Source: Dehalococcoidia bacterium (GTDB taxonomy: Bacteria > Chloroflexota > Dehalococcoidia > UBA6926). Taken from it: a DNA stretch of 64,000 nucleotides. A model generated the notes under the pieces. The model was not told the DNA's origin and ran no database searches. It worked only from the letters and a program-made list of their open reading frames with translations. The stretch is taken from contig CBDBNN010000001.1 of the NCBI GenBank assembly GCA_965207895.1, positions 182,312-246,311 on the forward strand, written 5' to 3'. Below, piece after piece: positions 8,596-64,000 of this stretch. Position 1 is the stretch's first letter, and each line of letters begins with the position of its first letter. The position numbers and the translations under genes were made by a program.

Positions 8596-10086
<1,491 letters not shown>

Positions 10087-15282: not shown

Positions 15283-15309
15283 ACTCTTGAGGGGAACAGG
15301 GGAAAGCGG

Positions 15310-15813
15310 ATGACAACAAACCAGGGGGACGGCGGAGATACCGCTGCCCCGCAGATCACTTTCAACGAGGCCATTCTGCACGTTGAACAGATGACGGGGG
15401 TGATTGAACTGACGCAGGAGCTGGTCGACCGCTATGTCGAACTGACCGGCATCCCGAAGATCGAAGTCGGGGATGATGGACGACAAGAGGCCCCCATGGC
15501 CATGCTCAACGTCTTTTTCACTCGCAACCAGGAACGGGGCGCGGATGTCAAGCTGGAAGGCGCAACCGTTGGCCTCAACGCCGGCCGCGCCATTGAACTC
15601 CACACCCCCATTTACGTTGGCGACAAGCTGACTCGATACGCCGTCCTTCAAGACGTTTATTCGAAGACGGGCCGATCCGGAACGATGGCCTTTGAAGTCT
15701 GGGAAATCCTCTTCCGCAATGACGCCGGCGAGCTCATCGCCCGCGCCCGTGACTCCATGGTATTTCGTGCGCCCGGCGTTCCTCCGGCGAAGGACGGGGA
15801 GGCACAATCATGA
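15310..15813 (+). CDS. Hotdog-fold protein (MaoC-N / FAS1-like dehydratase N-terminal type)
   Basis: 167 aa. Size and pairing with the downstream MaoC-like gene suggest a hotdog pair. The genes overlap by 4 nt. Confidence 0.55.
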   Translation: MTTNQGDGGDTAAPQITFNEAILHVEQMTGVIELTQELVDRYVELTGIPKIEVGDDGRQEAPMAMLNVFFTRNQERGADVKLEGATVGLNAGRAIELHTPIYVGDKLTRYAVLQDVYSKTGRSGTMAFEVWEILFRNDAGELIARARDSMVFRAPGVPPAKDGEAQS

Positions 15814-17742: not shown

Positions 17743-17819
17743 GGGCGGTTAGCTCAGCTGGTTAGAGCGCTTCCTTCACACGGAAGAGGTCACAGGTTCG
17801 AGTCCTGTATCGCCCACCA
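17743..17819 (+). tRNA. tRNA-Val (anticodon CAC)
   Basis: Acceptor GGGCGGT/ATCGCCC, D-arm GCTC-AGCTGGTTA-GAGC, anticodon stem CTTCC/GGAAG with loop TTCACAC, T-arm ACAGG-TTCGAGT-CCTGT, and an encoded CCA. Confidence 0.85.
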
Positions 17820-19396: not shown

Positions 19397-19440
19397 CTGT
19401 GAGTCCTCCTCCTGTTTCCTGTCGTTCCCGTGGGCCACTA

Positions 19441-37039: not shown

Positions 37040-37563
37040 CGGATTCTTGCCCACAGCCGGAGCATCCCGCCGACGCTAACCGCCGCCAGCGTGGCCACAA
37101 TCAGGCCCGTCTTCACCACGGTGAACACGGCGGCCAGCCAGGTCAGCGGAGAAGGCTCACCGTCGTAGCTCAGGGCCAGCGCAGCGATGGTCGTATTCTC
37201 CAGCACATCCGCAAGGGCGAGGGCCAGCGGCAGCAGATACAGCGGCGCTCCGCCTCGAAAGAGCCGGAACAGCAGGACGGCGAACAGCAGGCCGTACGAG
37301 GCCGGAAAGAGCATGTCGACGGTGAGCGCGGTGGTCGCATAGACGACCCGTGCGCTGGCGTCGAGCCGGTCCAGGGCGTCGAAGAGGGCCGCCGCCTCTG
37401 CGGGTGTGTACCAGCCCCGACCGTCGAGCAGGTCCAGTCCTCCCAGCCGCGCCTGCCGCCAGGCGAGTCCCGCCACACAACCGACGGCGCCAACAAAGGC
37501 TGCGACCGTCATTCGCCAGGTTGCGAGTCGCTCCACCATCCTGCCCATCTGCAATGCCTTCAC
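37027..37563 (-). CDS. Hypothetical polytopic membrane protein
   Basis: 178 aa with four or five hydrophobic helices. Confidence 0.5.
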   Translation of the reverse strand: MKALQMGRMVERLATWRMTVAAFVGAVGCVAGLAWRQARLGGLDLLDGRGWYTPAEAAALFDALDRLDASARVVYATTALTVDMLFPASYGLLFAVLLFRLFRGGAPLYLLPLALALADVLENTTIAALALSYDGEPSPLTWLAAVFTVVKTGLIVATLAAVSVGGMLRLWARIRQSR

Positions 37564-37685
37564 CTCCGGTAGACCGGGCGCCTCCTCAGGACCTGCCCAT
37601 CACCCGCCCCGTGGGGCAGAGGAAGGGGGCCTGCGACATTGCCGCAGGCCCCCTTGCATCCTCTTGCCGGTCCGGCCGGGCCGGA

Positions 37686-43600: not shown

Positions 43601-46445
43601 GGGGCGAGATGCCGTAGAAGGCGTGGTCCTGGGTGCTGGCGATGGTGTTGTAGCTGATGGGGCCGGTGTCCGCGTCGGTGGTCGAGAACCGTCCGCGCCG
43701 GGCGTTGCTGGCGCCCAGAGGGTTCGCCTCCTTCGCACCGTCGGTGCGGGTGCCGGTCCACGGCCAGTCGTTCGAGGTGCTCCTCTCGCCGCTCTCGAAG
43801 CGCCGGTCCGCCATCGCCCAGTTCTCCCAGGTGTCGGACCAGAAGCCGGCGTTGTTCGCCGCGACCCGCTCGCCGTTCAGCCACCAGACCTCCGCGTCCG
43901 TGTGCCCGGCGTTGTTGGGGTTGGTCCGGGTGTGGTCCCGGGCGTCCACCGCGGCGGTGGAGCCCACCACCCGGAAGTGATCGGCGTAGCGCCGGACGGC
44001 GGCGTGCCCGTCGCGGGCCGCCTCCCGCACGTGGGCGTCGTAGACGCCGATGTCGGCGGCGGTGGCGTCGCGGTGGTCTTCGGTCATGAACAGCAGCCGG
44101 AACGTCTCGCCCGCGCCCAGACCGAGCGGCTTCAGCGGCCAGTCCAGGGGCACGGTGTAGGAACCGTCCGCGTGGGGCAGCAGCCGGCCGTTGACTCCCA
44201 TCGACAGAGTGGAGCCGCCGACCAGGGTGATCCAGTTGCCGCCCCCCTGCGCGCGGATGCGAGCGTCGTTGTTGATGCTCCAGCCGGGCGCGGCGCCCTC
44301 GTCCTCGGAGTTGCTCTGCGTGAACTTCACCTGGCTGTTGCCTTCCGTGAGTCCGGCTGCGTCCAGCACGACCCAGTAGCGGGTGTCCGCCTCGAGCGCG
44401 ACGCCCGGGTGCGTGAAGCGGTACGTGCCGGCCTGCCGGTTCACGAAGGCGGGATTGGTCAGGGTCCCCACGACCGTGCCGGGAGCCCCGTTGGCACCTT
44501 TGTGGACGGTGACCGTCAGCTTGGAGCCGAAGTCCTCGGTGGACCGCCTGAAGGCCACGTCCACGCTGGTCAGGGTGTACCCCGAGGGGTTGCCGCCGGT
44601 GTCGAAACCCTGCGCCAGGTCCACGTGCAGGCCCTGCACCAGGCCGCTCGACTGGCCGGTGTTCTTCACCAGCGCCGGGTCGTCGTCCCGCACCCGGACC
44701 GTCGCCGTCCCCAGCGACGTGGCCAGGTCGTAGTCCGACCCGTCCACCAGCGTCACCGTGACCGAGCCGTGGGCTTCGTCCACGTCGTCGTTGGTGGTGG
44801 CGATCTCCAGCGTCGCCGACCCGCTGGCCGGAATGGTGACGCTGGTGGGCAGGGTCCCGTACCCGAAGTCCCCGGTCGTGGTCACCGTGACGCTCACCGG
44901 CAGGTCTGCCGGGGGCGCCGGGACCGCCGTCAGCGTGAAGCTGGCGCTGACGCCCTCGGTGACGGCGCCGCCGCCAAGGATGCTCACCCGCGACGGCCGC
45001 AGCTTGTTGCTCACCTGCACGGAGAAGCCGTTGGACGTCGCGTGCGGGTCCGCGCCGCCGCCGACATTGGTGCCGAGGCTGGAGGCGTCGAAGGCGGCGT
45101 TCGAGCCGAGCGCGATGGTGTAGGTCTCCGTGCTCTCCGTCGCGCCGTCGACCACCGGCGTCAGCTCCAGCGTCGCCGTCCGCGCGCCCGCGCCCGAGAA
45201 GCGCACCGTCGGCGTCGCCGTGCTCGTGCCCGAAAGCGTCACGCCGGCGTTGAGGCTCGTGCCGGTCTTCTTCGCAAGGCTCCAGTCGGAGGTGGTCACG
45301 CCCGTGCCGCCGATCGACAGCGGCACGTCGATGGTCTCGCCCGCAATCAGCGCGCGGCCCAAGGTCACCGTGAACTCCACCGTCCCGCCCTCCGACACCG
45401 CGCCGCTGCCGACGCGGGCGAGGGTGACGACCGTGGGGTCGTCGTCGTGGAGGGTGTAGGTGAAGCTATTGGCGCTGGTGTCGATGGAAACCCCGGCGGG
45501 GAGCGGATTGTCCGGATCCTCAGAGAGAGTCACCGAGATGACTTCGTTGGGCACGTCCCCGACACTGCCGACAGCAAAGCCACTAATGCCCCTCTCCGTG
45601 CTACCTGCTGAGACTGTTAGATCTGCGCAACCGTTTTCATCCAGTGTCAAAACTGTGTTTTGCAAATGCTCAAACTCGAGGCCAAGGGTTGGGCGGTTGC
45701 TTGTGATACATACTCTGAAGTAGGTAGCAGTTGCCAGGGCCGATGAGACTTCCACCCGAAAACTTCCAGCAGCTGCACCTGCACTTAATTCTTGTGTCAT
45801 CTGCGGGGTAGATAGTTCTACAGACATTGTTGCGGTCTTCACCACGCCACCGAGGCTGATTTTCGGGGTTGGCGTGTTGGTGAACCATGAGCCTGTCATA
45901 GCATGCGCTCTATACACCAAGCCGTTACCGATGCTCCAGCCGGCGAGGGCTCCGCTATCTTCGTTGTTCGAATTCGTGGCGCGAATACCCGACGTGGCGA
46001 GGTTACGGCTGAGATCCAACACAAGGAAGTATGTGGTGTTCGCCGACAGGTCTATGCCGGTGCTCGTGAAGGTCAGCGTCTGGTCCGAGCTGGAGACGGG
46101 AAAGCTGGCGGGCTTGGTCAGGGTCCCCAGCGAGCTGCCCGGAGACCCGCTGGATTCGGTGTGGATGGTGGCGGTGAGGTCCGAAGAGCTGAAGCTGCTG
46201 TGGATAATGCCAAATTCCACTCCGACGCTGGTCAGGCTGTAGCCCGCGGCGTTGCTGCCGGTGGTGAACGCCACGGCGTAATCGTTGCCAAGAGCTTGAT
46301 TGAATCCGTCTGCCTGACCGAGGTTGCTGACGAAGGTCTGCGTCGCCTGCTGCGCAGAGGCTGTTTCAGACCCTCCAGACAGCAGCACGAACAGCGCCGC
46401 CGCCAGCAGGGTCAACGTGAGGAAGGTTCTGGCGGGGCGCCTCAT
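37686..46445 (-). CDS. Giant secreted adhesin-like protein (2919 aa): signal peptide, three SNLGQxDG-type domains, FN3 domains and about 8 Calx-beta-like domains
   Basis: The ATG at 46445 gives MRRPARTFLTLTLLAAALFVLLSGGSETASA. FN3-like segments (YEVRYWS..., VAWKPQGDGASYLVVW...). Repeated about 109-aa units TEGGDATFTVTASPAPxxNLxVSVTVSQSGDYGA...TDDxxDETDGSVTATV. The C-terminal domain DYQYTEGELVFAPGVTELTAEVWLEYDDDEEPDEYFVVEAYL is a Calx-beta hallmark. Confidence 0.85.
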   Translation of the reverse strand: MRRPARTFLTLTLLAAALFVLLSGGSETASAQQATQTFVSNLGQADGFNQALGNDYAVAFTTGSNAAGYSLTSVGVEFGIIHSSFSSSDLTATIHTESSGSPGSSLGTLTKPASFPVSSSDQTLTFTSTGIDLSANTTYFLVLDLSRNLATSGIRATNSNNEDSGALAGWSIGNGLVYRAHAMTGSWFTNTPTPKISLGGVVKTATMSVELSTPQMTQELSAGAAAGSFRVEVSSALATATYFRVCITSNRPTLGLEFEHLQNTVLTLDENGCADLTVSAGSTERGISGFAVGSVGDVPNEVISVTLSEDPDNPLPAGVSIDTSANSFTYTLHDDDPTVVTLARVGSGAVSEGGTVEFTVTLGRALIAGETIDVPLSIGGTGVTTSDWSLAKKTGTSLNAGVTLSGTSTATPTVRFSGAGARTATLELTPVVDGATESTETYTIALGSNAAFDASSLGTNVGGGADPHATSNGFSVQVSNKLRPSRVSILGGGAVTEGVSASFTLTAVPAPPADLPVSVTVTTTGDFGYGTLPTSVTIPASGSATLEIATTNDDVDEAHGSVTVTLVDGSDYDLATSLGTATVRVRDDDPALVKNTGQSSGLVQGLHVDLAQGFDTGGNPSGYTLTSVDVAFRRSTEDFGSKLTVTVHKGANGAPGTVVGTLTNPAFVNRQAGTYRFTHPGVALEADTRYWVVLDAAGLTEGNSQVKFTQSNSEDEGAAPGWSINNDARIRAQGGGNWITLVGGSTLSMGVNGRLLPHADGSYTVPLDWPLKPLGLGAGETFRLLFMTEDHRDATAADIGVYDAHVREAARDGHAAVRRYADHFRVVGSTAAVDARDHTRTNPNNAGHTDAEVWWLNGERVAANNAGFWSDTWENWAMADRRFESGERSTSNDWPWTGTRTDGAKEANPLGASNARRGRFSTTDADTGPISYNTIASTQDHAFYGISPLFRVEPTPVNAPPGEPAVMSNLGQADGAALTVTAASTVRDRAQSFTTGKNGGHYRLNSVDVEFAEIGDSDAARDLRVQIWAGSGGSPGSTAADVLADLARPSMPVGSADRTFTFTYQGNDGSGLRLEPNTTYWVYVYDASVQPNSTYTLRATASNSERLRGLRLPEGWSIGDGHSSWSLYPNPAVSWSTHSEALKIGLNLGAADAFVQFRTCAGTISGNDCDTGWVIANYNRHDPPPTITLTEGGPAVTYQWQAVDPHERRHFYVASQVGEPLSHHGGYIGPGKPDRDRLMCHTGSRSPYNLGDPIVEGLGRDGIHFGYGSTAGPLLDRHDGCPFSSQSVYESDANKWRPVSLAAGQDSDAFDHGTFLIHRPHAVGHNFYENGVLYQVEGFDYPEVQVPLIIRDDDEWEQTLEFSIDDGTTWTSIEDGGLNLAFPASLNTGRKAHYFWVRTKNDPPADQDKRFSISADFAKPLLRSGTSEYFRSHRVWFTSPAASHLHTFRTDSAVSAGSVTVGRTPVQVDIHVGANVVGNVTFQVEGYKLYERSDNQISTETPPKTVRTDSFSFHRTLGSCVGCQRLLGDLPDPVVERVGDLTYANLSDTGIDLSWPQVVGAEGYEVRYWSTTSPFPGVPADEAWFGAEPNDPAWNIRHLEPDTEYRAVVYYQDHGATQLSTASPVIRFTTLAAGSPVEAEPTSVIVERVPEVSISAAGGTITEGEDAVYTVTVNPAPDAPLDVRVGVAGPGSVVAAQHLGERTVNVPTGGSVSFTIPTVDDTGWGSNGMLGATVQFGEGYRLNRFRSYASVYIANNDLPPPPPVQLKRVSDTTATVAWKPQGDGASYLVVWHESFTGVPVLTEVTTTATEHQLTGLNPQSHYVVSVLHGTTQLDKITVRTLAAGATPKTFTVDFETPAPNTSVPLISVTADGNVTEGGDATFTVSANPAPAADLDVSVTVSQSDDSGISMEHRTVTIPAAGYATLTVATTNDEVDEPDGSVTVTVDASANLDYRVSSSQGTAVVVVSDDDGGYTVNQGTIARVKELASQTQHGAAHVNRWNRVLLAFGEHDGTGVTGGPMTAAEAQDMADNHSSPVWDLVVVELTALEAAAAQTPPPPTPEVSVTAGSGVTEGGDAVFTVTASPAPTANLDVSVTVSQSGDYGATTGQRTVTIPTTGSVTITVGTTDDSTDETDGSVTATVNAGSGYTVSSSQGAATVAVSDNDDASTPVVSVTGGGGITEGGDVTFTVTASPAPASNLAVSLTVSQSGDYGATTGQRTVTIPTSGSATVTITTTDDDVDETDGSVTLTVNAGSGYTVSSSQGAATVGVADNDDPVVEEQTGYTVDPDVIAKVRELASQTQHGTAHVNRWNRVLLAFGEHDGAGVTGGPMTASEAQEMANRHSSPVWDEVVTELTALEAAAAQTPPPPTPEVSVTAGSGITEGGDATFTVTASPAPASNLDVSVTVSQSGDYGAATGKRTVTIPTTGSVTLTVGTTDDTTDETDGSVTATVNAGSGYTVSSSQGAATVAVADNDAAPTPEVSVTAGSGITEGGDATFTVTASPAPTANLDVSVTVSQSGDYGATTGRRTVTIPTTGSVTLTVGTTDDDADETDGSVTATVNAGSGYTVSSTQGAATVGVADNDDAPTPVVSVTAGSGVTEGGDATFTVTASPAPASNLAVSVTVSQSGDYGATTGQRTVTIPTTGSVTLTIGTTDDTTDETDGSVTATVNAGSGYTVSSTQGAATVAVSDNDDAPTPVVSVTAGSGVTEGGDAIFTVTASPAPAANLAVSVTVSQSGDYGATTGQRTVTVPTTGSVTLTVGTTDDDADETDGSVTATVNAGSGYTVSSSQGAATVGVADNDDAAPEVEITVTVEAASAVEGDVLEFRVRLSEASTEEIRIRWNTAPAYHLLDDRAHMTDYQYTEGELVFAPGVTELTAEVWLEYDDDEEPDEYFVVEAYLPGTLYPPDAVGTMTIIDDD
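38040..40850. repeat. Near-identical tandem coding repeats (about 327-bp unit x6-7) plus a duplicated about 260-bp insert inside the adhesin gene
   Basis: Protein-level repeats are more than 90% identical. The second repeat family (GYTVxPDVIAKVRELASQTQHG.AHVNRWNRVLLAFGEHDG...AAAAQTPPPP) occurs at about 39345-39614 and 40269-40523. Confidence 0.7.
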
Positions 46446-46468
46446 GAGAGAGAACCCCCACGAAATGC

Positions 46469-46478
46469 GGGGGGGGGG
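46469..46478. repeat. Homopolymeric G10 (C10 on the coding strand) 24-33 nt upstream of the adhesin start codon
   Basis: Sequence ...atgcGGGGGGGGGGtgaagc. On the minus strand this reads CCCCCCCCCC-gcatttcgt-GGGGG-ttctctctc-ATG. Confidence 0.6.
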
Positions 46479-46748
46479 TGAAGCTCCGCAGCGCATCAGT
46501 CATGTCGTCGAACCTCCTGTGTCGCCCGACTTATGCCGCGACGCCGTGCGGGCGCTGGATCAGTAGTATTTCTAGCTCATGTCAATATGTGTCGCAAACG
46601 ACCAGCAGATATCATCCGCCAATCTGGGGTTCGTTGTCAATGGGGTCCGGGTTGGATTGGGGACGGAAAGGGAGGGCGGAGCGCAGCAACATACCGTGTG
46701 GGGACTGGCGGACAAGGGCGACTTGGCGAGACCCCTCGGAGGCAGTCG

Positions 46749-47693: not shown

Positions 47694-48617
47694 ATGACTG
47701 CTCTTGTCCGTCAGTTCAGATTCTTCCTAAGAGATGAAGTCAACCCAAATATTGACAGGGTGCGCAGGCTGCGCTCAGGCATTAGAGGAGTTAGAGATCA
47801 CCTGCACAGAAATCTTGATGGTTTTCAAGGTATCGCTCGACAGGGCTCATTGGGCTTGGACACTTTAATCAAGCCCGTCCGGGAAGATGACGAGTACGAC
47901 GCTGATGTTCAAGTCGTCATGAACCCACAGGCCAATTGGAATCCGAGGCAATACTTGGATGCTGTATTTGAAACACTGTCGACGAGCCTAGACTATCAAG
48001 ACAAACTGGAATGCAACACACGGAGCGTGACCATCAAGTTTGCCGGGCACTTCAGTATGGATGTCGTTCCGCGTATCACCCAAGATGGCCAGCACCAAGT
48101 CTGCAATCGCAGAGATAACAGATTTGAATCAACCGATGGTATGGGCTATCACAACTGGTTCCACGAGAAGAGCAAGTTGACCAACGTCAACCTCAAGCGT
48201 GCCGTCCGGCTGTTAAAGTACATCCGCGATCGTGAGAGCAATTACAAAGCTCCGTCCATATTGCTTACAACCTTGGCGGCAAACGCCATACAGTCTGGTG
48301 ATCGTGGCAGAGACTCTGTAAAGTCAGTCGCAAGCACATTGACCACGATCCTTACAAGGATGGACAGCTATTTGCAGGGGCTCCCACGAAAACCCGCCGT
48401 CAGGAATCCTGTACTACGCTCCGAGACGTTCGACCGCCATTGGAATGATGTCCAGTTTGCGATATACAGGGAGAACATTCACCGATATGCCGAGATTGCT
48501 ACAGGAGCCTTTGCCAGTTCTTCTGTCCCGGAATCAATTGATCGTTGGAGGAGGCTCTTCGGCGAAGGTTTTGGAGGGCATTACAAGGCACCGCCTCATA
48601 GTAAGCAAAGGGTTTAA
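47694..48617 (+). CDS. SMODS / CD-NTase-like nucleotidyltransferase
   Basis: AGGAGGG RBS. Carries the nucleotidyltransferase-fold motifs QGSLGLDT (GS) ... DDEYDADVQVV (h[DE]h) ... FSMDVVP (third acidic). 307 aa with a SMODS-like C-terminal helical region (RLLKYIRD..PSILLTTL). Confidence 0.6.
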   Translation: MTALVRQFRFFLRDEVNPNIDRVRRLRSGIRGVRDHLHRNLDGFQGIARQGSLGLDTLIKPVREDDEYDADVQVVMNPQANWNPRQYLDAVFETLSTSLDYQDKLECNTRSVTIKFAGHFSMDVVPRITQDGQHQVCNRRDNRFESTDGMGYHNWFHEKSKLTNVNLKRAVRLLKYIRDRESNYKAPSILLTTLAANAIQSGDRGRDSVKSVASTLTTILTRMDSYLQGLPRKPAVRNPVLRSETFDRHWNDVQFAIYRENIHRYAEIATGAFASSSVPESIDRWRRLFGEGFGGHYKAPPHSKQRV

Positions 48618-49615: not shown

Positions 49616-52597
49616 TTACTTCTCCAAAAACATGGTCACGTAGTCGGCGTCGACGTTTGGCATGGTGAAGCCGTACTGCGAAATAGCCTCGGTGAACTTG
49701 CTGATGTCGTAGACGCTGGTGTCCGACAGGTACGGCTCTACGGAGTCCAGTGAGCGGAGCAGCATCTTCAATTCCAGGTCGTCGTCGCGGTCGGCCGCTT
49801 CCTGCAGTCTCGACTTCCATTCCGCCAACGGAGCGCGTTCCGTGATGTGTCTGTTGCGTTCCATGAGGCCGAAGACCTCGTCTGCGGGTATCGGATCCTG
49901 ATGGACCACGTTGTAGACCCTCCCGAGGTGATTCGAATCATCAGCGATCTTGCTGATTGCGGAAACGAGGAAGTCTACGGGTGTCATCTCGAAATTCCAA
50001 TCCGGCGCGTGGGGCGCGCTACCCAGGCGAGCGCAGGCCTTTAGGATCAGGAGGAGGAAGTCATTGGGATTGCCCGTACCCGTGCGGCTATGGTGACCGA
50101 TGTTGCCGGGCCGATACATGCAGACCGGCAGTCCTCGCGAGACGGAATGCCAGACCAGCCGCTCCGCAACCCACTTGGACTGGTTGTAACCGCCTTCCAT
50201 CCGGTCCACCCACGAATCGATTTCATTGTTCTCCAGGTATGGAGTGGTGTCACCGCCGGGAAAAACCCCGTTGGATGAGATGTACTGCAGCGTCTTTGGC
50301 TTGCCGGTCGTGGCGAATCTGAGCACTTCCGTCGTGCCGCCGACGGTGTGGGGCTTGGACGCCGAATATGGATAGACGTAGTTGACAGAGGCGGCGCAAT
50401 GGAAGATAAGGTCAATCTTTCCTGCCAACTCGTTGTATTTGTCGCCGCCCAGTCCCATTAGCGGCTGAGTGAGGTCGCCTGAGACAGTGATGATCCGATC
50501 ACCCGCAGCCTGGCTGGGCAGTCCATAGAATTTCAGCGTCTCCAGCACCCGACCAGACGGCCCGCCCTCTCCGGCGTCGCCGTCGCGTGCCAGACAGTAG
50601 AACGTCGTATCCGCCCTCGTGGATTGCACCAGCTGATCGAGCAGGAATGCCCCAAGGAATCCGGTCGTTCCGGTGATCAGGATCGAGGATGCTTCGCTCA
50701 ACCGCATAGGTGTGGCGTCGCCTCGCGGCGCAATCTCCGGGTCCAGCTTGGCGTCCTGAGCCAATGCCGCGCCGGATGCTGCTCCCCCTGCCCCGCCGTT
50801 TTCGAGATATGCCGCCAGTTCACCGATGGTTGGATATTCGTACACCTCAACGCCGCTCAGTTCTCTTCCGAATGTCTCCTCTATGGCAATCGTGAGCGAC
50901 ATGCCTGCCAAAGAGTGGCCGCCAAGGTCAAAGAAATTCCAGTCGTCCTCCAGGTCATCAAGGTTGAGCTCCAGCGTGTCGGCCCACAGTTCTCGCAGGA
51001 CTGCGCGTCTCTCTGCTGCTGTGGCATGTTCAGCCAGTCGTGTTCGTCGCTTGTCTGGCGATGCTCCATTGCGCAGTGACGGTAAGGCTTTTCGTTGCAG
51101 CTTGCCGGTCTGCTGATTGATGGGAAGGGCGTCCAGTTCAATGAAGTGAGAAGGGACGGAATAGAGAGGCAGGTATCGTTCCAGTAGGTTTCTCAGGTCT
51201 CTGCTCGCTCCGCTCCGGGCGTCCAGTTTCCAGGCAGCATTCTGGCCCCGAACCACATAGGCAACCAACCGTTTGCTGGTCTCATCCAGGTTTTCAACGA
51301 CGACGGCCGCATCCGCGGCGTCGCAGTGTCGGCGCAGCATCTCTTCAATCGCGCCGAGATACACGGTGTATCCCCTGATCTTGACCATGGAATCAGTCCG
51401 ACCCACGATCGTCGTCATGCCGTCAGCCGTAACTTCTGCAAGATCGCCGGTTGCGTAGTACCGCTCGTCATCCAGCGTGACGAACCTCTCGGCATCCAGA
51501 TCAGGCCTCTTGAGGTAGCCCCGTGCCACCCCTTGACCGCCGATGAGCAACTCCCCTACACCACTCGTCTTCACGGCGGAGCCGTCCTCCGGGCGCACGC
51601 GGAGTTCGACGCCGTCCATCGCATAACCCACCGGGCACGTGTCCATCCCATCCAGCGACAGTTCCGTCAGGTCAATGGTGCAGACATCATGGGTTTCACT
51701 GATGCTGTAGGTATTCAGCAGGCGGGCGCCTGGCGGCAGGACATCCCGGGCTTGCCTGAGCAGGCTGGCAGGAACGACCTCCCCATTCAGCCAGACGACG
51801 CGCAAGGACGACATCTGTTGCCGGAGCTGTTCATGCTCTCCGGAGTTCAGGACGCTCTGCAGCAGGGACGGCGTGAACAGGATCTCGGATAGCCGGTGCT
51901 CCGAAATGAACCGGGCAAGTGAGCGCGGAACGAAGATGACGTCATCGGAGATGACATAGACCGTGCCGCCCTTCAGCAGCGGCCGCAGGAACTCCCACGG
52001 AAAGAAGATGTTGCAGCCGACCCTGTCTCCAACGCCGTATGAACTGTACGTATACCTGGCGTCGTAGGAGGACATCATGGCTCTCAAACTCAGCATCACG
52101 CCTTTCGGATCACCGGTGGTGCCGGAGGTATAGGGGATGAATGCAAGATCATCGCTGTCGACGTGTGTCGCATGGTTTCCTGCCCCGTACTCCTGCCATG
52201 AGTGGTCACTATCAATGGGAAGTATCCGGGTGTCGCTGAACTCGGTCAGTTTCGGCAGGAATCGCTCTTTGGTAAGCACAACCTTTGGCTGCGCCTCAGC
52301 CACGATGCCGCGCAGCAGGGGTTCGGGCGAGTCAACGGCCATGGGCATGAATGCCCCGCCGGCCTTTAGCGTTGCAATGGCGCTGACGATGTATTCGGAG
52401 CACGTATCCATGAATATGCCCACGGGCTCATCGGTCCCAATGCCACAGCTTTGAAGCCAGCCACCCAGGGCGTCCGCCGATCGGTTCAACTCTGCGTACG
52501 TCATCTGCCCATCGCCGAATACGATTGCAGCAGCATCCGGGGTGATTTCAACTTGCGTTTCAAATAATTGATGGACGCTGGATTCTACTAAAACCAT
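49616..52597 (-). CDS. NRPS-like carboxylate reductase: adenylation - PCP - thioester reductase (A-T-R)
   Basis: A-domain cores (YTSGTTGDPKGV; YATGDL; KIRGYTVYLGAIE), PCP core FFDLGGHSLAGMSL and R-domain LITGTTGFLGAFLL plus a later catalytic Y...K region. The start is most likely the ATG at 52597 after GGGGAAG; the track used a GTG at 52612. Confidence 0.85.
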   Translation of the reverse strand: MVLVESSVHQLFETQVEITPDAAAIVFGDGQMTYAELNRSADALGGWLQSCGIGTDEPVGIFMDTCSEYIVSAIATLKAGGAFMPMAVDSPEPLLRGIVAEAQPKVVLTKERFLPKLTEFSDTRILPIDSDHSWQEYGAGNHATHVDSDDLAFIPYTSGTTGDPKGVMLSLRAMMSSYDARYTYSSYGVGDRVGCNIFFPWEFLRPLLKGGTVYVISDDVIFVPRSLARFISEHRLSEILFTPSLLQSVLNSGEHEQLRQQMSSLRVVWLNGEVVPASLLRQARDVLPPGARLLNTYSISETHDVCTIDLTELSLDGMDTCPVGYAMDGVELRVRPEDGSAVKTSGVGELLIGGQGVARGYLKRPDLDAERFVTLDDERYYATGDLAEVTADGMTTIVGRTDSMVKIRGYTVYLGAIEEMLRRHCDAADAAVVVENLDETSKRLVAYVVRGQNAAWKLDARSGASRDLRNLLERYLPLYSVPSHFIELDALPINQQTGKLQRKALPSLRNGASPDKRRTRLAEHATAAERRAVLRELWADTLELNLDDLEDDWNFFDLGGHSLAGMSLTIAIEETFGRELSGVEVYEYPTIGELAAYLENGGAGGAASGAALAQDAKLDPEIAPRGDATPMRLSEASSILITGTTGFLGAFLLDQLVQSTRADTTFYCLARDGDAGEGGPSGRVLETLKFYGLPSQAAGDRIITVSGDLTQPLMGLGGDKYNELAGKIDLIFHCAASVNYVYPYSASKPHTVGGTTEVLRFATTGKPKTLQYISSNGVFPGGDTTPYLENNEIDSWVDRMEGGYNQSKWVAERLVWHSVSRGLPVCMYRPGNIGHHSRTGTGNPNDFLLLILKACARLGSAPHAPDWNFEMTPVDFLVSAISKIADDSNHLGRVYNVVHQDPIPADEVFGLMERNRHITERAPLAEWKSRLQEAADRDDDLELKMLLRSLDSVEPYLSDTSVYDISKFTEAISQYGFTMPNVDADYVTMFLEK

Positions 52598-52769
52598 CCT
52601 GACTTCCCCCACACCCCAGACCTGATCACTTACGGAACAGGTAACCGTTAAATCAGCTAAATGTTGATGGTCGATTTTACAGGAACGTTAAAGCAATGTA
52701 AAATCAAGTGGTGGCTTCACGCCGTTGGCCTCGTCGGATGTCTCACCTGAATGGAAGGGATGGTCGTAT

Positions 52770-53459
52770 ATGCAGTTTGAGTCATTGGAGTTTTACAGGG
52801 AGCATGGCAAGCGATACTCCCAAATGTCTCATGAATTCTCACATTCACAATACGCTGAGATATCTCATCCCAGGCTGACAGGCGATATGGCTCTGCTGAA
52901 TCGCGCAACTGACCTGGCGTCCGGCAAGCGCAGCCTGGATGCCGGATGCGGTGCCGGGGCCCGAGACGTGGCCCTGCTCCACTCCCGGGGTTTTGATGCG
53001 TACGGCATTGACGCCGTAGAAGAGAACATTGATCTCGGCAAGAAGTTGCACCCGGAAATCGCCCACAAAATCAGTGTTGCCGACCTCCGAGAGCCCTTGC
53101 AATTCGACTCGGAGTATTTTGATCTTGTCCTTTGCAATGCCGTCATCCAGCATCTAACACCGGAGGACGTTGAGTCTACAACGATTCCGGAGTTTTCCAG
53201 GGTCCTGGCTCCCGGAGGCGTCTTACAGCTGATGTTCAAGGTCGGATCCGGCATCGCAGAGGTGAGCGACCCAGCGTTCGGGAACGATGGTGTGGACAGG
53301 CTATTCCAGCTCTATGAAGAGCGGCACCTGCTGAGCATCCTTGACGAGTCCGGCTGTTCTCTCATTGAGGAGGAAGGCAGCGACAAGCTTGGCGGCCTGT
53401 TGTACTTCACCGACCACAAGCCGATGCGCTATTGCGTCTTCTGGGCAAGAAAGAACTAG
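52770..53459 (+). CDS. Class I SAM-dependent methyltransferase
   Basis: Motif I LDAGCGAGARD and a post-I acidic residue. The start is reassigned to the ATG at 52770 after GGAAGGGA; the track ORF begins at a TTG. Confidence 0.75.
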   Translation: MQFESLEFYREHGKRYSQMSHEFSHSQYAEISHPRLTGDMALLNRATDLASGKRSLDAGCGAGARDVALLHSRGFDAYGIDAVEENIDLGKKLHPEIAHKISVADLREPLQFDSEYFDLVLCNAVIQHLTPEDVESTTIPEFSRVLAPGGVLQLMFKVGSGIAEVSDPAFGNDGVDRLFQLYEERHLLSILDESGCSLIEEEGSDKLGGLLYFTDHKPMRYCVFWARKN

Positions 53460-53471
53460 AACCGCTGCCCT

Positions 53472-54635
53472 CTAGATCTGCAGGGGCTGCGCCTCGACAG
53501 ACGCGGCGGTCTTCTGGACATCGCTGACCGGCACTTCTGCAATTCCTGTCATACTGCACTTGAGCCCCGCATAGGCGGCGGCGAATCGTCCGATTTCCTC
53601 CAGTGACCAACCTGCCCACAGCCCATACATGATGCCGGCTGAGCAGGCTGCGCCCGCTCCATTGCCGTCCACGACATCCACTTGCGGAGGCCTGACGAGA
53701 TATGCCTCGTCACCCTGCGCAACTACACACCCGTCAGCGCCCAGGGTCACGACCGCCATGTCCACCCCGCGGTCAATCAGGCTGCGGGCGATATCGGACG
53801 GATCACCGGATGCTTCGGGGATATCCAGGGAAACCTGACAGATGGTTGCTTCTTTTATCATGTCGGTGATCCACGATTCACCGTTGTATTGGGATTCCAG
53901 GTTGAGATAAACGGGCACGTCCTGAGAAACGGCGTCCCGCACGGCATGGACGACGCTTGGGCCATCATACCAATCGACGTAGAGCAGTCCCGCGTTGCTA
54001 AGCTGCGAGGGATCGGGCGGCCTCAGCTCTGCCATGGAGGCGGAATCTCTTCGCTGAAAATAGGTTCGGCCCCCGTCGGGGTCAATGATCGACACTTCGA
54101 ACGGAGTCGGCCACCCGTCTTTGATGTCCTGCTGGACATTCACACCCCATGCGTCGAGATGTTCCCTGACCCTCTCTCCACGACTGTCATTTCCGGTCGG
54201 TGAGGTGATGAGCCGCGTCGGAACGTTCCAGCTAGTCAGGATGCTTGCAGCGATGGCGGCATCATCGCCCAGGGATTCCATTGAGTCCAGGATTGGCGCG
54301 CCGCCATTGTGCTCAGGCAGCTCGTCAACCTTGAGTAGAAGGCAGTGAGTCAAGAGGCCAAAGCAGACCACGTCTCCCTTGCCAACATCCGCCGGAAGTC
54401 GATTGCCGTTCGCGTGCGTACCGTTTTTCATCATGGCTATTGCTGCTTCCCCCAGTTGCTCCCACCTGAATCCAGATGTCGAAAAAAACGAGAATCGCTT
54501 ATCAGGGAGCAAGCTTCCGCCGATGTTAACGCACTTAACAAAGAATGTCCATTCAGGTGATGTCACCCGTCTTGAGAAGCGCCAGTGTTCTGTTAGGATG
54601 GCCGCAATCGCGATTGACGCGTGATTGTCACTCAC
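53472..54635 (-). CDS. FHA-like domain fused to PfkB/ribokinase-family sugar kinase
   Basis: The N-terminus has KNGTHANGNRL...GDVVCFG, the FHA C-terminal motif. The C-terminus is PfkB-like with DVVDGNGAGAACSAG, where the canonical DTxGAGD has the last Asp replaced. GTG start without an obvious RBS. Confidence 0.65.
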   Translation of the reverse strand: MSDNHASIAIAAILTEHWRFSRRVTSPEWTFFVKCVNIGGSLLPDKRFSFFSTSGFRWEQLGEAAIAMMKNGTHANGNRLPADVGKGDVVCFGLLTHCLLLKVDELPEHNGGAPILDSMESLGDDAAIAASILTSWNVPTRLITSPTGNDSRGERVREHLDAWGVNVQQDIKDGWPTPFEVSIIDPDGGRTYFQRRDSASMAELRPPDPSQLSNAGLLYVDWYDGPSVVHAVRDAVSQDVPVYLNLESQYNGESWITDMIKEATICQVSLDIPEASGDPSDIARSLIDRGVDMAVVTLGADGCVVAQGDEAYLVRPPQVDVVDGNGAGAACSAGIMYGLWAGWSLEEIGRFAAAYAGLKCSMTGIAEVPVSDVQKTAASVEAQPLQI

Positions 54636-55073: not shown

Positions 55074-56214
55074 TTACCCAGCTACCTTGGCACAAACTGC
55101 GTAGACGGTGAGGGTCCAGTTGCCAGAGACCGCGTTCACCTCAGTGGCGCTTGCGACCCATCCTGTAGGAACGCCACCAAGCTGTCCCGCCGGGCGGGAT
55201 TCAGTTACGGCTACGCCCCCGTCAGAGGACTCCACCAGCGCGCCACCGGAGATTGCAGAGAAGCCTGTGCCAACCGAAGAGCACAGTACGGTTTCGGACT
55301 TACTGGCGTCACTGTTCGATGAGCTTTGCGATCGCGCGATTCGAAGGTCGGATACTCCGGGCTCGCCTTGCTCACCCTGCGGACCATGCGGTCCTGCTGC
55401 TCCTGTTGCTCCCGTCGCACCGCGTTGTCCTGCCTCACCTTGCGGGCCTCGTTGTCCTTCCGCCCCTTGGGGTCCTATAGGTCCTGCTTGCCCTTGAGGC
55501 CCTTCGGGTCCCGTTTGGCCTTGATCGCCCTGCAGACCTCGTGGTCCTTCGGGTCCGGTTGGGCCTGTCGGCCCTTGCGGGCCTTCCGGTCCTGTAGCTC
55601 CGGCTGGTCCGACCAATCCTTGTGGGCCCCTATCACCCTGGATGCCTTGTGGGCCTTGTGGGCCTGCCTCACCCTGTGCGCCACGAGGTCCGAGAGGTCC
55701 CTGAGAACCTGCTGGTCCCGGGTCTCCCTTCGGACCTTCAGGCCCGCCTGCAGGTCCCATAGGTCCTACCTGGCCCTGTGGTCCTGGAACGCCCTGAGGT
55801 CCTTGCACGCCTTGCGGCCCAGCGGGTCCTACCCCGCCTTGAGGTCCTTGCACGCCCTGCGGTCCTGTCTCACCCTGGGGTCCTTCGGGTCCTGTCGCAC
55901 CAGTGTCGCCCTGCGGACCTGGAGGACCACCGGGATCCCCCTGAGGTCCTTGAGGTCCTGTCGCTCCTGCGGGTCCTGCCGGTCCTGCCGCACCCTGGGG
56001 TCCTGCCGGTCCGGGGTCGCCTTGCGGTCCTGCCACGCCCTGCGGTCCTGCCGCTCCTGCCGGTCCTGCCGCTCCTTGAGCCCCTTCAGCACCTTCGCAT
56101 GCAGCGGCTGCAAGGATCATGACTATCGCTAGGGCCGAGATAGCCGCGATCAACACCCACTTCCGCACGGGCTCAATCGATTTCACATACTTAGACAAGG
56201 CTGGCATCGTCATT
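55074..56214 (-). CDS. Collagen-like triple-helix repeat protein with N-terminal TM anchor and C-terminal globular domain
   Basis: The ATG at 56214 follows GAAAGGA. TM segment [20 protein letters not shown], then about 80 uninterrupted GXY triplets ([16 protein letters not shown]...), then a roughly 100-aa Ser/Thr-rich tail. Confidence 0.8.
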
Positions 56215-56587
56215 CCTTTCACCTCACCCCAACGCTCTGTTTCAATCCTCAAGCGAAATACCATGAATGTCAAGAACCTTGCTCGACTATCTATGCCTTC
56301 GCAATGAAGGAGTCGGACTCACGCGGCGCGCGGGCTCACAGCCTTCTTGAGTCGCATCGCATTTTTGACAGCGTGCCCTGCTTGCCGGAGGCGCTCTCAC
56401 TCAGAATACCAGCAATCTCACTTCCTTGACACCCCTATCGACACCCCTATCCGACTCCTGCTCTCTGCGTTTTTTCATCCAAATCGAACCAGCAAAGGAA
56501 CCAGGAAACCGATCATTGCCCTGAACCTGTCCCTCCCCCCGTACACCGAGCCCGGACGTGGACTTCACATAGAAGTGCCCTGCGTCG

Positions 56588-57727
56588 TCAGTAGATTCCG
56601 GGCATAATGCGCCATTTGACGCGGGACTTGTATTCGGCCCATTTCTCGGCGCCATACTTCTCCTCGCAGTGCGTCTCATCGCTGCGCTGCCGCCACGTGA
56701 AGAATGACACGACGAAGACGAAGTACGCCCACGCCCAGGGGTTCAGGAAGTGGCCAAATGAGAGGCCGACGGCAAAGGACAGGAACCCCTCACCCATGTA
56801 GTTGAAGTGGCGGGCCACGCCCCAGAGGCCCGTGTAGAGTATCTTACGATCGCCCGCCTGGATGTACTTCGGTTCGATAATCCCGAGGAACTTGCGATCC
56901 GGCCACCTTTTAAAGGTGTATTTCTGGAGGTTGGCACCGCGTCCGATGCTCCAGCCCAGCAGGAAGAGCGCCGTGGAGCCGATGAGCCAAACATAGGTCC
57001 AGAAATCGGAGAAGCCGGGGTGCGGGTGCGCGGCCATCCCCCACAGCGGCAGGATGAAGACCCAGCCGTAGATGACGATGCCGCCCCAGAACATCTTGAA
57101 TCCCATCCGTTCATAGATCAGATCGTAGGTGTAGAGCTGGACGCGCTCCCAGATGAAGTAGTCAAAGACGTAGAACGTGAAGAACGCGGCATAAAGGAAG
57201 ACGCCGGGGTTGAAATCGCTTCCAAATTGGTCGTAGTGCCACGCTGCGCCAGACATGGCGTTGAGCGATAACATGGTTCCGCCGACAACGTAGAAATACA
57301 TCTTGATATCGACGCGCTCGCCAAAGAGGGATATCTCCTGCGCCCGACCTTCCCATAGCGCAAGCAGTGGGTTCTTTATGTCTCCCTGTGGCTGGCTGTA
57401 GACCGCCGCGATGGACATGATGAGAGTGAAGACGGTGCCGCCGGCGATCGCATATAAGGAAGATCGATAGAACCAGTCACGCGGCATGCCTGTAATCTCA
57501 GTCGCCCAGATTGCGACGGCAACGAGGAAAACGAGGATGCCGTTCAGTCGGTAGTTGCGTGGCTGGCCGGTTTCCGGGTTGATGACGTACCCGGGTACTT
57601 TTCTGCCGGGCAGAATCAACTGAGCTAAGAGGAAGGCGGCAAAGATGGCAAGGGGCGTGAAGAACCCCGCAATCGCCTCGGCGCCTGAAAGCTCGAAGAG
57701 GTGCTCGATACCAAGCCATTCAATCAT
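56588..57727 (-). CDS. Sterol reductase family protein (ERG4/ERG24 / 7-dehydrocholesterol reductase-like)
   Basis: C-terminal LYTGLWGVARHFNYMGEGF ... WRQRSDETHCEEKYGAEKWAEYKSRVKWRIMPGIY matches the sterol-reductase C-terminal signature. Polytopic. The start is the ATG at 57727 after GGAGAGAGGGG. Confidence 0.7.
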   Translation of the reverse strand: MIEWLGIEHLFELSGAEAIAGFFTPLAIFAAFLLAQLILPGRKVPGYVINPETGQPRNYRLNGILVFLVAVAIWATEITGMPRDWFYRSSLYAIAGGTVFTLIMSIAAVYSQPQGDIKNPLLALWEGRAQEISLFGERVDIKMYFYVVGGTMLSLNAMSGAAWHYDQFGSDFNPGVFLYAAFFTFYVFDYFIWERVQLYTYDLIYERMGFKMFWGGIVIYGWVFILPLWGMAAHPHPGFSDFWTYVWLIGSTALFLLGWSIGRGANLQKYTFKRWPDRKFLGIIEPKYIQAGDRKILYTGLWGVARHFNYMGEGFLSFAVGLSFGHFLNPWAWAYFVFVVSFFTWRQRSDETHCEEKYGAEKWAEYKSRVKWRIMPGIY

Positions 57728-58020
57728 GACGGAATACCCCTCTCTCCGATGACGAGGCAATTATGGATTCAGGCTTGGTGGAAATTCAAGAAGGCGATTC
57801 CGTATCTCAACAGGATGGCGGTTTCCAGGGACCAGCGGTGCCCTACAGAATCAAGAAAATCATCGTCCGCTCCAAATAGCACGTATCCTTTCTCAAAGTA
57901 AGCGGGGAGGATGAGCCCTGTGGCAACGCCGCCTGAGTCATTCAGTAAACGCCATCGGGCACAAAGGCAGCGAGGACTCTAGTGCATTTGTCGCCGACGA
58001 AGCTGCGCATATTACGCAGC

Positions 58021-61000
58021 ATGGGGCTGCTGCTCTTGCTGGCAGCATCCATCGCCGGTTTCATGATGCTCATCGACTTGCTCGCGGATACAACGCCGCA
58101 GGACGCGCCTGATCTTCTCGCAGAGGCCGACTCCGAGGCGGATGTCATCAGCCTGCCCAATTCTGCCTCCCTGTTCGCCATCGGCCTTGCAACGATGGCA
58201 ATTATTGTCTCTCTGGCAGTTGTGGCAGCGCCCTCGAATTGGCGCCGCTCAGAGAACGGATTGCCCCGTCCACGTTGGATCTCATTGGGCATCGCCGCGA
58301 TTATTGCTCTCATCATCGCGGCGGCCGGATTGTTTCTGGCTTTCGCAGATGCATCACCTCTTTTCCAGGAGCAGACTGGCGCGGGCGAAGTAACCAGCAG
58401 CCATGAGGTCAACACCAACTGGGTCGCGCCGGCCGGCGTCGCCTTGCTGGCTGCCTTCTTCTTTACCGTCATCCTGATTGGTTTCCTCAGGCCGCGACTC
58501 GTTTTGCCGGTTCTCGCAATCTGGCTGGCCGCAAGCCTCTTCTTTGGATTCTTTAGTTCCAGCGCAATCGCGGGTCTGAGCCTGTTTGATCCCCTGGTCA
58601 GCATCAAAGTGCCGGGTGCCTTCGCCGAAGAGGTTGCCGGGCATCGGACGGTGGCGATTCAACCGGGTTCCGAAGGCGATGGTATACCAGGGCCAGGCGA
58701 CGCCTCGTCTGACCCTAACGATATTCCCGGCAATGGCGTTCTGGAAGATTCTGCTGCAAACGGCGTTAGTGGACTTGATGATGTTGGTCAGGCCGCCCCG
58801 GGAGAAATCTCGGAAGAGGCGGTTATTGCGAGGCTGGAAGGCGCGGGGGACCCCGCTGACCGCGCGAACGCCGCACAAAAACTGGCCGAATTTCGCTCCG
58901 ATGACGCGTTGCGATCTCTTGCACACGCTGGGCTATATGACCCGTCCCAGCTCGTACGCGACAAGGCAATCGACGCCATTACGGAATGGGACTTTGAGAC
59001 GCTTGTCGAGATATTGCAGGAGCACCCGGAGTCTAATGTCCGGCGCGCCGCAGCAGCAGCCCTTGGACGACTGAATGACAGTCGCGCCGTCGAACCGCTC
59101 GCCACAGCCCTGCTAACGGATGAGGCCGCAGAGGTTCGGCAGGAATCCGCCAAAGCCCTCCGCAAGCTCCGCGACCCGGAAGCCGTGAGCCCCCTCATCC
59201 AGGCCCTCTTGCGAGACGAAAATCCATCCGTCAGAACCGAGGCGGCGACTGCGCTCGGCGCGCTGGAAGATGAACGTGCGGTACAGGCTCTCCTCGAAAC
59301 ATTGCAGGGCGATACATCCGCGCTCGCGCGGGAGGCGGGCGCCGAAGCGCTGGGGCGCCTTCGCGGCTCTAACCCGCTAGCCGAACTCGACACTGCACGG
59401 GTGGATGACTTCTCGGCGGGCGTGCGCGAGGAGGCCGCACTGGCCCTCCAACGCTACACGATCCCTGAATTGATAGACGCGCTGCATAACGCGTCGGCTG
59501 CTGACGACCGCGCAGTCGCCGCGAGGCTGCTCGGCGAGAGAAGAACTCCCACAGCGATACCGGAACTCATCCTCGCCCTCAGTGACCCTGAGGGAATCGT
59601 CCGCGAGGCGGCGGCTGGGGCGCTGGGCAATTTCGGCAATATGCAGATGCTGGAGAACGGCAGCTCCGTCCTATCACACGGTGGCAACGAGTACATCATT
59701 CCGGGAACAACAACCAGGCAATCATCCGGTCTCCCTCACGTGCCCATGTTCAGATTCACAAACCAGGCCCACCTGGATTTCCTTCGTACAGCCGTCGGCG
59801 ATGTTTATAGTGGCGATGGCTGGCTGGACAGTAATATTCAAGCACTTCCCTATGAGGCCCATGAACCCATTGAGGAGATCGACGCGTCGGGCAGCCCTCT
59901 CACCTGGGTCTCATCCATGCCGGAAAATACCGTGTACTACCACCCACCGGCCGGCAAGATCTACCTTCCCCGCGGCATTTTCCCGATCGGCTATGTCACG
60001 CGTACTGCAGACGTGGACGGCATATATCGTCCCGGCAGCTCAACCTTCCTCATGCGGGAAAGGCAAAGTTATGTCACAGCCAACGTGACGCCAGCGGTCT
60101 ATGACGACTCAGTTCTGCAGTCTGCCGTTGCGGAGCAGAGCTTGAGCGTTACGTTTCCGGATTCCGTCCCCGATCGCGTTCACGATCTGGCCGCCCGCAT
60201 CACCGCAGGCCACACATCGGCATACGCCAAAGCCAAGGCAATTGAGCAATACCTGGCGACCACCTATGAGTATCGGCTGGCAGACGAGGATACCGTTCCC
60301 ATTCCAAGGGGGCACGATCCCGTTGACTGGTTCCTGTTTGAGAGTCGTGAGGGAACGTGCGGTCAATTCAGCAGCGCCTTTGTTGTGCTCGCACAGTCAA
60401 TCGGCCTCCCTGCTCGCGTGGTTTCCGGCTTCGCGATTACTCCTACCTCAGATGAACAGCTCGTCTTTGCCGACCAGGCGCACCAGCGGGCTGAAATCGC
60501 ATTTGATGGGCTTGGATGGGTTGCTTTCGAACCGACACCGGCTGAGGAGGGCGCGCCAGGCCGCGCTTCCGGTTACTTTGCATCAGGAGAATCGTCTCCA
60601 CGCTCCGCACAAGCGGAGCTTCAGCGTTTGGCGGAACAACTGTCCAGCGACAATCCCGCCGACGTACAGGACGCTCAACGCGCCATTGAGGAACTAGGCG
60701 GGAGTGTCGAGACTCTAGAGAATGGGAGCATTCTCGTAGAGGGTGAAGGTGGCGCCCAGGGCACAGCCCCAAGCACGACGGCAGATCAAGCGTATGACTT
60801 ACCCCAGTCCGCAGTGTTCACGGTTACTGGAGCGCAAGAAACCGGATACCTGGTGACGACAACCGGCGACATCTATACCGGCGACGGATGGCGTCGATTA
60901 GACCCGGTGATCGTCGACTATACCAGATCCGAATCCGTTCCCGAGCTGGTTCGCGATTCAATTGAAGAAGGCCGGGAACCGTGGGGCGATCTGCCGGAAT

Positions 61001-63990: not shown

Positions 63991-64000
63991 CCTGAAAGGC

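Follow-up and report, generated by a model that had tools for sequence, protein, structure and literature searches.

The fungal glycine betaine reductase ATRR is a stand-alone enzyme of the nonribosomal peptide synthetase (NRPS)-like type, with an adenylation (A) domain, a carrier (T) domain and two reductase domains in the order A-T-R1-R2, and it lacks the Asp235 of canonical amino-acid A domains (Hai, Huang & Tang 2019; bioRxiv 10.1101/559534). The trimethylammonium group is described as held in a cage of F201, W204 and W270 with E304 (bioRxiv 10.1101/559534), and F202 stacks on W204. A diatom homologue carries N212, F214, F215, V216, W217, F285 and E319, including an NxFFxW motif (PMC13194791), and atrr genes have been reported as 'exclusive to eukaryotes' (bioRxiv 10.1101/559534). 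Here we analyzed a stretch of 64,000 nt from a Dehalococcoidia bacterium (contig CBDBNN010000001.1; the window), in which three open reading frames (ORFs) at 49616-54635 encode an A-T-R carboxylate reductase, an S-adenosylmethionine (SAM)-dependent methyltransferase and an atypical PfkB-fold protein. From their sequences we tentatively propose that this trio may form one conserved metabolic module of marine or sponge-associated Dehalococcoidia, which would turn a betaine- or amino-acid-type carboxylate into an amino alcohol and then into a phosphocholine-type product.

The ORF list and scans with Pfam and NCBIfam models recovered the three ORFs where a preliminary description of this DNA had placed them (Table 1). 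Its assignment of an A-T-R enzyme was confirmed by Pfam matches to AMP-binding (1.1e-66), PP-binding (4.2e-18) and NAD_binding_4 (3.6e-54), and that of a divergent SAM methyltransferase by matches to Methyltransf_11 and Methyltransf_25 for a gene that diverges from the reductase gene. The reductase start was placed at the ATG at 52597 on the basis of the Shine-Dalgarno sequence upstream of it (GGGGGAAG) and of the length of its relatives, 992 aa. The third gene had been described as an FHA-PfkB kinase. The PfkB part stood (Pfam 1.5e-24), but the FHA part did not (E=0.15; 12.9 bits, cutoff 20.7). In the long PfkB ORF, residues 1 to 67 have no conserved counterpart in any of the 35 homologues, conservation in the family begins at M68/M69 of that ORF, and gene callers give 320 to 322 aa in relatives; in addition, a promoter-like site (54551-54523) falls within the supposed N-terminal extension. 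The FHA-like segment is a 67-residue extension produced by choosing the longest ORF.

Table 1. Features of the window (the limits given for the three genes of the trio are the likely true ones; positions count from the first nucleotide of the window).
Feature	Position	Strand	Remarks
NRPS-like A-T-R carboxylate reductase	49616-52597	-	993 aa from ATG at 52597; longest ORF from GTG at 52612
Adenylation domain	51113-52564	-	residues 17-500 of long ORF
Pocket motif N-I-F-F-P-W-E, in place of canonical F-D-x-S	51992-52012	-	residues 201-207; GrsA-PheA alignment
Carrier (T) domain	50804-51001	-	Pfam PP-binding, residues 538-603; GGHS phosphopantetheine attachment site
Thioester reductase (R) domain	49625-50683	-	GTTGFLG NAD(P)H motif and YxxxK; Pfam/NCBIfam
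Symmetric bidirectional promoter-like element	52674-52704	both	TTTACA-N17-TAAAAT each way
Class I SAM methyltransferase, phosphobase N-methyltransferase-type resemblance	52770-53459	+	229 aa; longest ORF 52725-53459
Atypical PfkB-fold protein, putative kinase	53472-54434	-	320 aa; longest ORF to 54635
Large serine recombinase	17762-19438	-	island
Relaxase-like, T4CP (coupling-protein) and VirB4-like genes	21-28 kb		island
Four-helix-turn-helix (HTH) regulator	35401-36558		island
Giant fn3/Calx-beta surface protein	37686-46496	-	2936 aa; island
CBASS-type oligonucleotide cyclase	47694-48617	+	PADLOC E=6e-90
304-aa protein with ~8 transmembrane (TM) helices	48661-49575	-	no database match; between cyclase and reductase stop codon, convergent

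With three domains on one polypeptide and intact core motifs, the reductase belongs to the NRPS-like A-T-R enzymes. Invariant motifs include A3 SGTTG-PKG, the A10 Lys, GGxS, GxxGxxG and YxxxK, and neither G559, G560 and S562 of the carrier domain nor the catalytic Y, K and S residues of the R domain vary in the family. The thioester-reductase model TIGR01746 was passed with 256.7 bits (cutoff 213.35), and the A domain came narrowly below the cutoff of TIGR01733 (282.9 against 317.4 bits); its best solved relatives are the NRPS A domains LgrA, TycA and GrsA. The R domain of MxaA, which performs a four-electron reduction to the alcohol, is the closest solved relative of the window R domain (4U7W, E=5.6e-69). 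Carboxylic acid reductases (CARs) and the α-aminoadipate reductase Lys2 have the A-T-R architecture and the overall chemistry in common with the window enzyme, but the latter scored far under both equivalog cutoffs (181.7 bits against 1300 for NF041592 and 287.6 against 1030.1 for the Lys2 model TIGR03443), and it also failed the MxcG equivalog model. The NF041592 score ruled out a CAR-type reductase, and the A domain is of the NRPS type, not of the fatty acyl-AMP ligase (FAAL) type. By these sequence features the enzyme classifies as NRPS-type and ATRR-like rather than CAR-type.

More than 2800 homologues of the reductase were found, with identities of 65-89% over the full length among the matches listed (n=120). 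In 80 genome loci, all from metagenome-assembled genomes of Dehalococcoidia or Chloroflexota, the reductases were 62-89% identical over their full length, and a 22-sequence alignment had a mean column identity of 79%. A search of representative proteins with the A domain was dominated by multi-module NRPSs longer than 5000 aa and did not reveal single-module relatives. The AlphaFold2 model of the reductase computed from the 22-sequence alignment had a mean pLDDT (predicted local distance difference test score) of 53.6 and was too poor for pocket analysis.

The substrate pocket was read from an alignment to GrsA-PheA, with the GrsA sequence confirmed by comparison with 1AMU, and from a second, HMMER alignment to EntF. 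In these alignments Asp235 has no counterpart, the position being deleted or occupied by Ile, and the pocket code, numbered as in PheA, reads -/I F W L W N T V C K. The absence of an Asp235 equivalent indicates a substrate other than a canonical α-amino acid; the label 'carboxylate reductase' of the preliminary description is a fair one. The FFxW pocket motif was present in 118 of 120 family members, whereas 800 A domains taken from 150 large NRPSs all lacked it at that position. Among residues N201, F203, F204, P205, W206, W274 and E306 of the window reductase, the F, W and E residues lie 2 to 4 positions off F201, F202, W204, W270 and E304 of Aspergillus nidulans ATRR, a comparison made through published residue numbers and not by direct alignment. 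N201, F203, F204 and W206 also reproduce the NxFFxW motif of the diatom protein. E306 is the universal A5 Glu and has no discriminating value. As read from sequence, the pocket match to ATRR is a strong lead, not proven homology of the pockets; by analogy, an aromatic cage of F203, F204, W206 and W274 would hold a betaine substrate. The entry 8WWW ('Carrier domain-containing protein'), considered as a possible ATRR-like solved A domain, did not rank among the matches of the pocket segment.

The likeness to ATRR comprises a stand-alone NRPS-like reductase without Asp235 and the FFxW…W aromatics and A5 Glu at nearly equal residue numbers. Furthermore, both enzymes are highly conserved within their lineage, and neither has conserved biosynthetic neighbors except small tailoring genes. 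The window enzyme differs in being bacterial, in having no R2 domain and in its linkage to methyltransferase and kinase genes. As R2 is absent and the putative substrate is assigned from the pocket, the reductase is not a demonstrated member of ATRR. Our literature search found no relevant paper on an NRPS-like or ATRR enzyme in Dehalococcoidia, SAR202 or Chloroflexota.

A profile of the methyltransferase family, built from 17 sequences, was searched against the PDB. The top four matches were phosphoethanolamine/phosphobase N-methyltransferases (PMTs; E=4.7e-11 to 1.1e-8), with alignments that extend well past the SAM-binding core, and no glycine/sarcosine N-methyltransferase was named among the listed matches at E<=1e-3. 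A further profile search with the family returned close family members only, without informative names. The best solved relatives are PfPMT (3UJ6), nematode PMT-2 (4KRH/4INE) and plant PMT1/PMT2 (5WP4/5WP5). Comparison with PfPMT by hhalign, using a sequence verified against 3UJ6, gave a probability of 93%. The family-invariant residues Y16, H128, R177 and K228 aligned with Y19, H132, R179 and K247 of PfPMT. We take Y19 and H132 to be the catalytic dyad of PfPMT and R179 and K247 to be phosphate ligands, and in this sense the Tyr/His dyad and the Arg/Lys ligands of PMTs match invariant residues of the window family. With these residues and a class I SAM fold, the protein may provisionally be placed among the PMTs. 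It is unlike them in its low identity (~22%), its shorter length (229 aa) and its bacterial origin, and the phosphate-binding tyrosines Y160, Y175 and Y181 of PMTs are not conserved in its family.

The PfkB-like protein has the fold and the TLGxxG and GAG motifs in common with PfkB/ribokinase-family kinases such as YdjH (3H49), sulfofructose kinase (7AG6) and ribokinase (1RKD). It passed Pfam PF00294 with 87.4-88.2 bits (cutoff 25.8); the PfkB fold is conserved, and both ATP-site motifs are invariant. Unlike in those kinases, Ala stands in place of the GAGD Asp, C or T takes the place of the N-terminal sugar- or ribose-binding Asp, and GDDAAI that of GGKGAN. The pair of residues that defines PfkB kinases, the GAGD Asp and the N-terminal hydroxyl-binding Asp, was found in none of the 35 members. 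As the catalytic and sugar-binding residues are missing, the protein is not an ordinary sugar kinase, and the earlier label 'sugar kinase' is doubtful. The protein also differs from PfkB kinases in its many invariant aromatic and acidic residues, and its partner genes point to a non-sugar substrate; judged from sequence, the acidic and aromatic residues would suit a cationic one. Phosphorylation without a base might, for example, involve an acceptor that does not have to be deprotonated. The protein is replaced in position by EcKL/APH kinases with intact motifs in other genomes (see below), which argues that it supplies a phosphorylation step.

To assess linkage, all ORFs from 83 related loci and the window were clustered, and partners of the reductase, defined as genes within 10 kb of it, were counted in 80 species-level loci. 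The methyltransferase and PfkB-like genes accompanied the reductase in 32 of the 80, in the layout of the window and with 11-12 bp between their convergent stop codons, although the reductases of these species share just 64-89% identity with that of the window. The methyltransferase occurred with an EcKL/APH kinase in nine loci and by itself in seven, the PfkB-like gene by itself in one and an EcKL gene by itself in one; the remaining 30 had neither partner. Adjacency of the trio thus occurs far more often than by chance. Beyond the closest clade, only two families were kept with the reductase, that of the methyltransferase in 51 loci and that of the PfkB-like protein in 35 loci, and both are less conserved than the reductase itself. 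The preliminary description had called the genes a mini cluster and had named unlinked genes in related genomes as the finding that would count against it. The recurrence of the layout, together with the non-orthologous kinase replacement described next, bears the cluster out, and linkage is retained in about half of the related species.

In loci L039 and L045, the PfkB-like and methyltransferase genes are fragmentary, and an intact pair of a paralogous methyltransferase (MT') and an EcKL kinase lies just downstream. MT' is 53-55% identical to the window methyltransferase and has many of the invariant residues in common with it. In L042 an EcKL gene occupies the PfkB position, and in L085-L087 a sulfatase-fold hydrolase, MT', an EcKL kinase and the reductase form one co-directional operon. 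The EcKL/APH kinases have intact HGD and DWE motifs. These cases represent non-orthologous kinase displacement inside one module, and such displacement is strong evidence that the genes of the module are functionally coupled. Another locus (L084) holds the hydrolase, a short-chain dehydrogenase/reductase (SDR), MT', EcKL and an aminotransferase, and the reductase is absent; the aminotransferase set is a possible alternative route to an amino alcohol. The sulfatase-fold hydrolase groups with the arylsulfatase/phosphonate-monoester-hydrolase clade. Thr replaces its formylglycine Cys, a feature that points to a phospho(di)esterase working on the same pool. The operon of L085 and L086 (positions 8450-15606; also in L087) is carried by a mobile element that also encodes a tyrosine integrase, a Mu-like transposase and IstB. 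One 6.2 Mb genome contains this element twice, and the gene maps of the two copies match, as do their methyltransferase proteins.

The 172-bp intergenic region between the methyltransferase and reductase genes contains a perfectly symmetric promoter-like element, with one copy directed towards the methyltransferase gene and one towards the reductase gene. The two overlap fully, so that the -35 hexamer of one promoter is the -10 hexamer of the other, and each strand scores 10 of 12. The hexamers coincide with the conserved columns of the intergenic alignment. The element was found in 30 of 38 loci with the divergent methyltransferase, compared with 4 of 44 without it. A common bidirectional promoter argues for co-regulation of the methyltransferase and the reductase. 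An Rfam scan of the window from 46 to 60 kb detected no riboswitch or other RNA family.

In the pathway that we propose, the A domain would adenylate a small carboxylate without a free α-amino group, most likely a betaine with a quaternary ammonium or sulfonium group, for example glycine betaine, or a glycine that is partly N-methylated. The acyl group would then be moved onto the phosphopantetheinyl carrier domain, and the R domain would use NAD(P)H to release the aldehyde, or the alcohol after a second reduction, giving a choline- or ethanolamine-type amino alcohol. This alcohol would be phosphorylated by the PfkB-fold protein, or by the EcKL/APH kinase in other lineages, before the PMT-like methyltransferase added the remaining N-methyl groups to the phosphobase. 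The pathway would end in phosphocholine or a close analogue, which could become the head group of a lipid or glycan or the precursor of an osmolyte. The 'small modified metabolite or lipid head group' of the preliminary description is compatible with such a phosphobase. By analogy, the module would combine two known schemes, betaine reduction of the ATRR type and the methylation pathway of phosphobases. A bolder version of this proposal, which we put forward as doubtful, holds that the reductase is a bacterial counterpart of ATRR within a new three-enzyme phosphobase route, in which a PfkB-fold protein of a new amino-alcohol kinase type and EcKL/APH kinases are used interchangeably, under a palindromic bidirectional promoter.

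Several observations weigh against the proposed pathway. Neither partner lies inside 10 kb of the reductase in 30 of the 80 loci. The catalytic Asp of GAGD is replaced by Ala (GAGA) in 35 of 35 PfkB-like proteins, which are possibly poor or non-canonical kinases or no kinases at all. The similarity of the methyltransferase to PMTs is remote, as the identity of 22% and the hhalign probability of 93% indicate, and it could act before the reductase, making the betaine, rather than after the kinase. The match to the ATRR cage rests on residue numbers quoted in bioRxiv 10.1101/559534 and PMC13194791. The diatom NxFFxW protein is reported to reduce tryptophan and to bind salicylates (PMC13194791), and the motif therefore does not fix the substrate. 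The second, aldehyde-reducing SDR domain of ATRR (R2) has no equivalent in the window protein, which has a single R domain and ends at residue 998. Finally, no LicC, LicD, Pcs or other user of phosphocholine was seen in any examined locus.

The trio might instead be a generic small secondary-metabolite cluster, in which an aryl, keto or unusual amino acid would be converted to a reactive aldehyde or alcohol (for example in tryptophanol-like or pyrazine-type chemistry) and then O- or N-methylated and phosphorylated to give a signal, toxin or pro-drug. We consider this unlikely, though it has several points in its favor: stand-alone A-T-R enzymes often make such products, the best NCBIfam matches are the A-T-R parts of MxcG and AusA, the diatom NxFFxW enzyme is reported to make tryptophanol (PMC13194791), and the module is mobile in some genomes. 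However, the very high conservation of the reductase and its presence in streamlined genomes resemble primary metabolism, as does the more than 60% conservation of fungal ATRR; the methyltransferase is nearest to phosphobase N-methyltransferases and not to natural-product O-methyltransferases, and no further tailoring, export or regulatory gene is co-conserved. It is improbable, in our judgment, that the reductase acts alone, for instance from betaine to choline or on another acid, with the methyltransferase and PfkB-like protein as an independent, often lost accessory pair. The loci without partners or with the methyltransferase only (30 and 7 of 80), the decayed methyltransferase and PfkB fragments beside intact reductase genes, and the greater conservation of the reductase would all fit such a division. 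Yet the overlapping bidirectional promoter is kept with the methyltransferase-reductase pair, a new methyltransferase and kinase pair adjoins the reductase where the PfkB-like and methyltransferase genes have decayed, and all these functions lie in one co-directional operon in L085-L087.

Two further readings concern the PfkB-like protein and the neighboring genes. The former may be a ligand-binding or regulatory pseudo-enzyme, or may transfer phosphate to an anionic acceptor (phosphate or carboxylate) that needs no base. This idea, partly compatible with the other readings, draws on GAGA in all 35 members, the C or T at the ribose-binding Asp and GDDAAI in place of GGKGAN; we find it rather improbable, given that TLGxxG and GAG are invariant and that an EcKL/APH kinase with intact HGD and DWE replaces the protein positionally. 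Tailoring of a sterol, hopanoid or other lipid, together with the neighboring ERG4/ERG24-like and squalene-synthesis genes, appears very improbable. An ERG4/ERG24 gene does lie 2 kb off, HpnCDE-like genes are found in L001, sterol-methyltransferase-like, Rieske/KshA and MMPL genes lie near the reductase in L002, and steroids are substrates of EcKL kinases and steryl sulfatases elsewhere. Against it, the linkage of ERG4 and the collagen-like gene to the reductase is confined to the 14 closest loci, the A domain is of the NRPS and not the FAAL/CAR type, and the methyltransferase is PMT-like rather than similar to sterol or cyclopropane-fatty-acid methyltransferases (SMT/CMAS).

If the betaine-to-phosphobase pathway is correct, NRPS-like reduction of glycine betaine to choline would reach from eukaryotes into bacteria. 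An abundant, uncultured clade of the ocean and of sponges, both rich in betaines, would have a bacterial pathway to head groups of the phosphocholine type or to precursors of osmolytes. The pathway would also imply that a PfkB-fold kinase can act on a non-sugar substrate without a catalytic base, and that PfkB and EcKL proteins are interchangeable within one pathway through kinase displacement. As the module consists of three soluble proteins with a short list of cheap substrates, an in vitro test is feasible.

The chromosomal trio abuts a conjugative island of 31.8 kb with 62-73% GC (window ~17,820-49,610). The chromosome of a close relative (L004) has an empty site, with the sequences of window 11.6-17.8 kb and 49.6-54.6 kb only ~4 kb apart, which identifies the intervening segment as an inserted island. 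In other genomes, related recombinases, tyrosine integrases and transposases likewise occupy the 3' flank of the reductase gene (recombinases or integrases in L025, L038, L089 and L092). Such repeated integration marks this flank as an integration hot spot and explains the recurring neighbors from the cyclic-oligonucleotide-based antiphage signaling system (CBASS). SMODS/CD-NTase genes are also neighbors of the reductase in L024 and L025 and, together with Cap15, in L085. In the window, the CBASS cyclase has no recognizable effector in its own operon; the 304-aa TM protein could be its effector or unrelated cargo. A role of the trio in anti-phage defense was considered and rejected, as PADLOC gave no match for the reductase or the PfkB-like protein and the CBASS genes belong to islands.

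Within the island, the ORF of the giant surface protein overlaps a plus-strand ORF (37350-45611); both exceed 2700 aa at ~70% GC, and the domain scan, which covered the minus-strand ORF, gave the fn3 and Calx-beta matches. The plus-strand ORF is probably a stop-codon-poor antisense artefact.

On the other side of the trio, a gene for a collagen-like protein with G-X-Y repeats (55074-56273, minus strand; Pfam Collagen E=4.9e-37) adjoins it in the close clade only; in other relatives (L088-L093), its place beside the PfkB gene is taken by giant fn3/cadherin proteins. An ERG4/ERG24-family sterol-reductase-like gene follows (56588-57760, minus strand), 2 kb from the trio. With 92-98% protein identity among close relatives, it is the most conserved gene of the locus, and like the collagen-like gene it stays with the reductase in just the 14 closest loci. 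In L001 (positions 1-5510), the ERG4-like gene has as neighbors two SQS_PSY genes and one for an FAD amine oxidase, an arrangement that resembles HpnCDE squalene synthesis. Near the reductase in L002 (positions 1-7300) are genes for a CMAS/Sterol_MT_C methyltransferase, a Rieske/KshA_C pair, LppX and an MMPL/sterol-sensing transporter. Several isolate names suggest an origin in sponge metagenomes, and the genes just listed hint at sterol-like lipid metabolism in these possibly sponge-associated Dehalococcoidia. The last ~6 kb of the window (~57,900-64,000) contain only short ORFs (<=221 aa), without a Pfam or PHROG match. They are 70-82% identical in nucleotide sequence to the syntenic region of six related loci (L005, L006, L010, L011, L013 and L065), and this stretch is one of unannotated small genes or RNAs.

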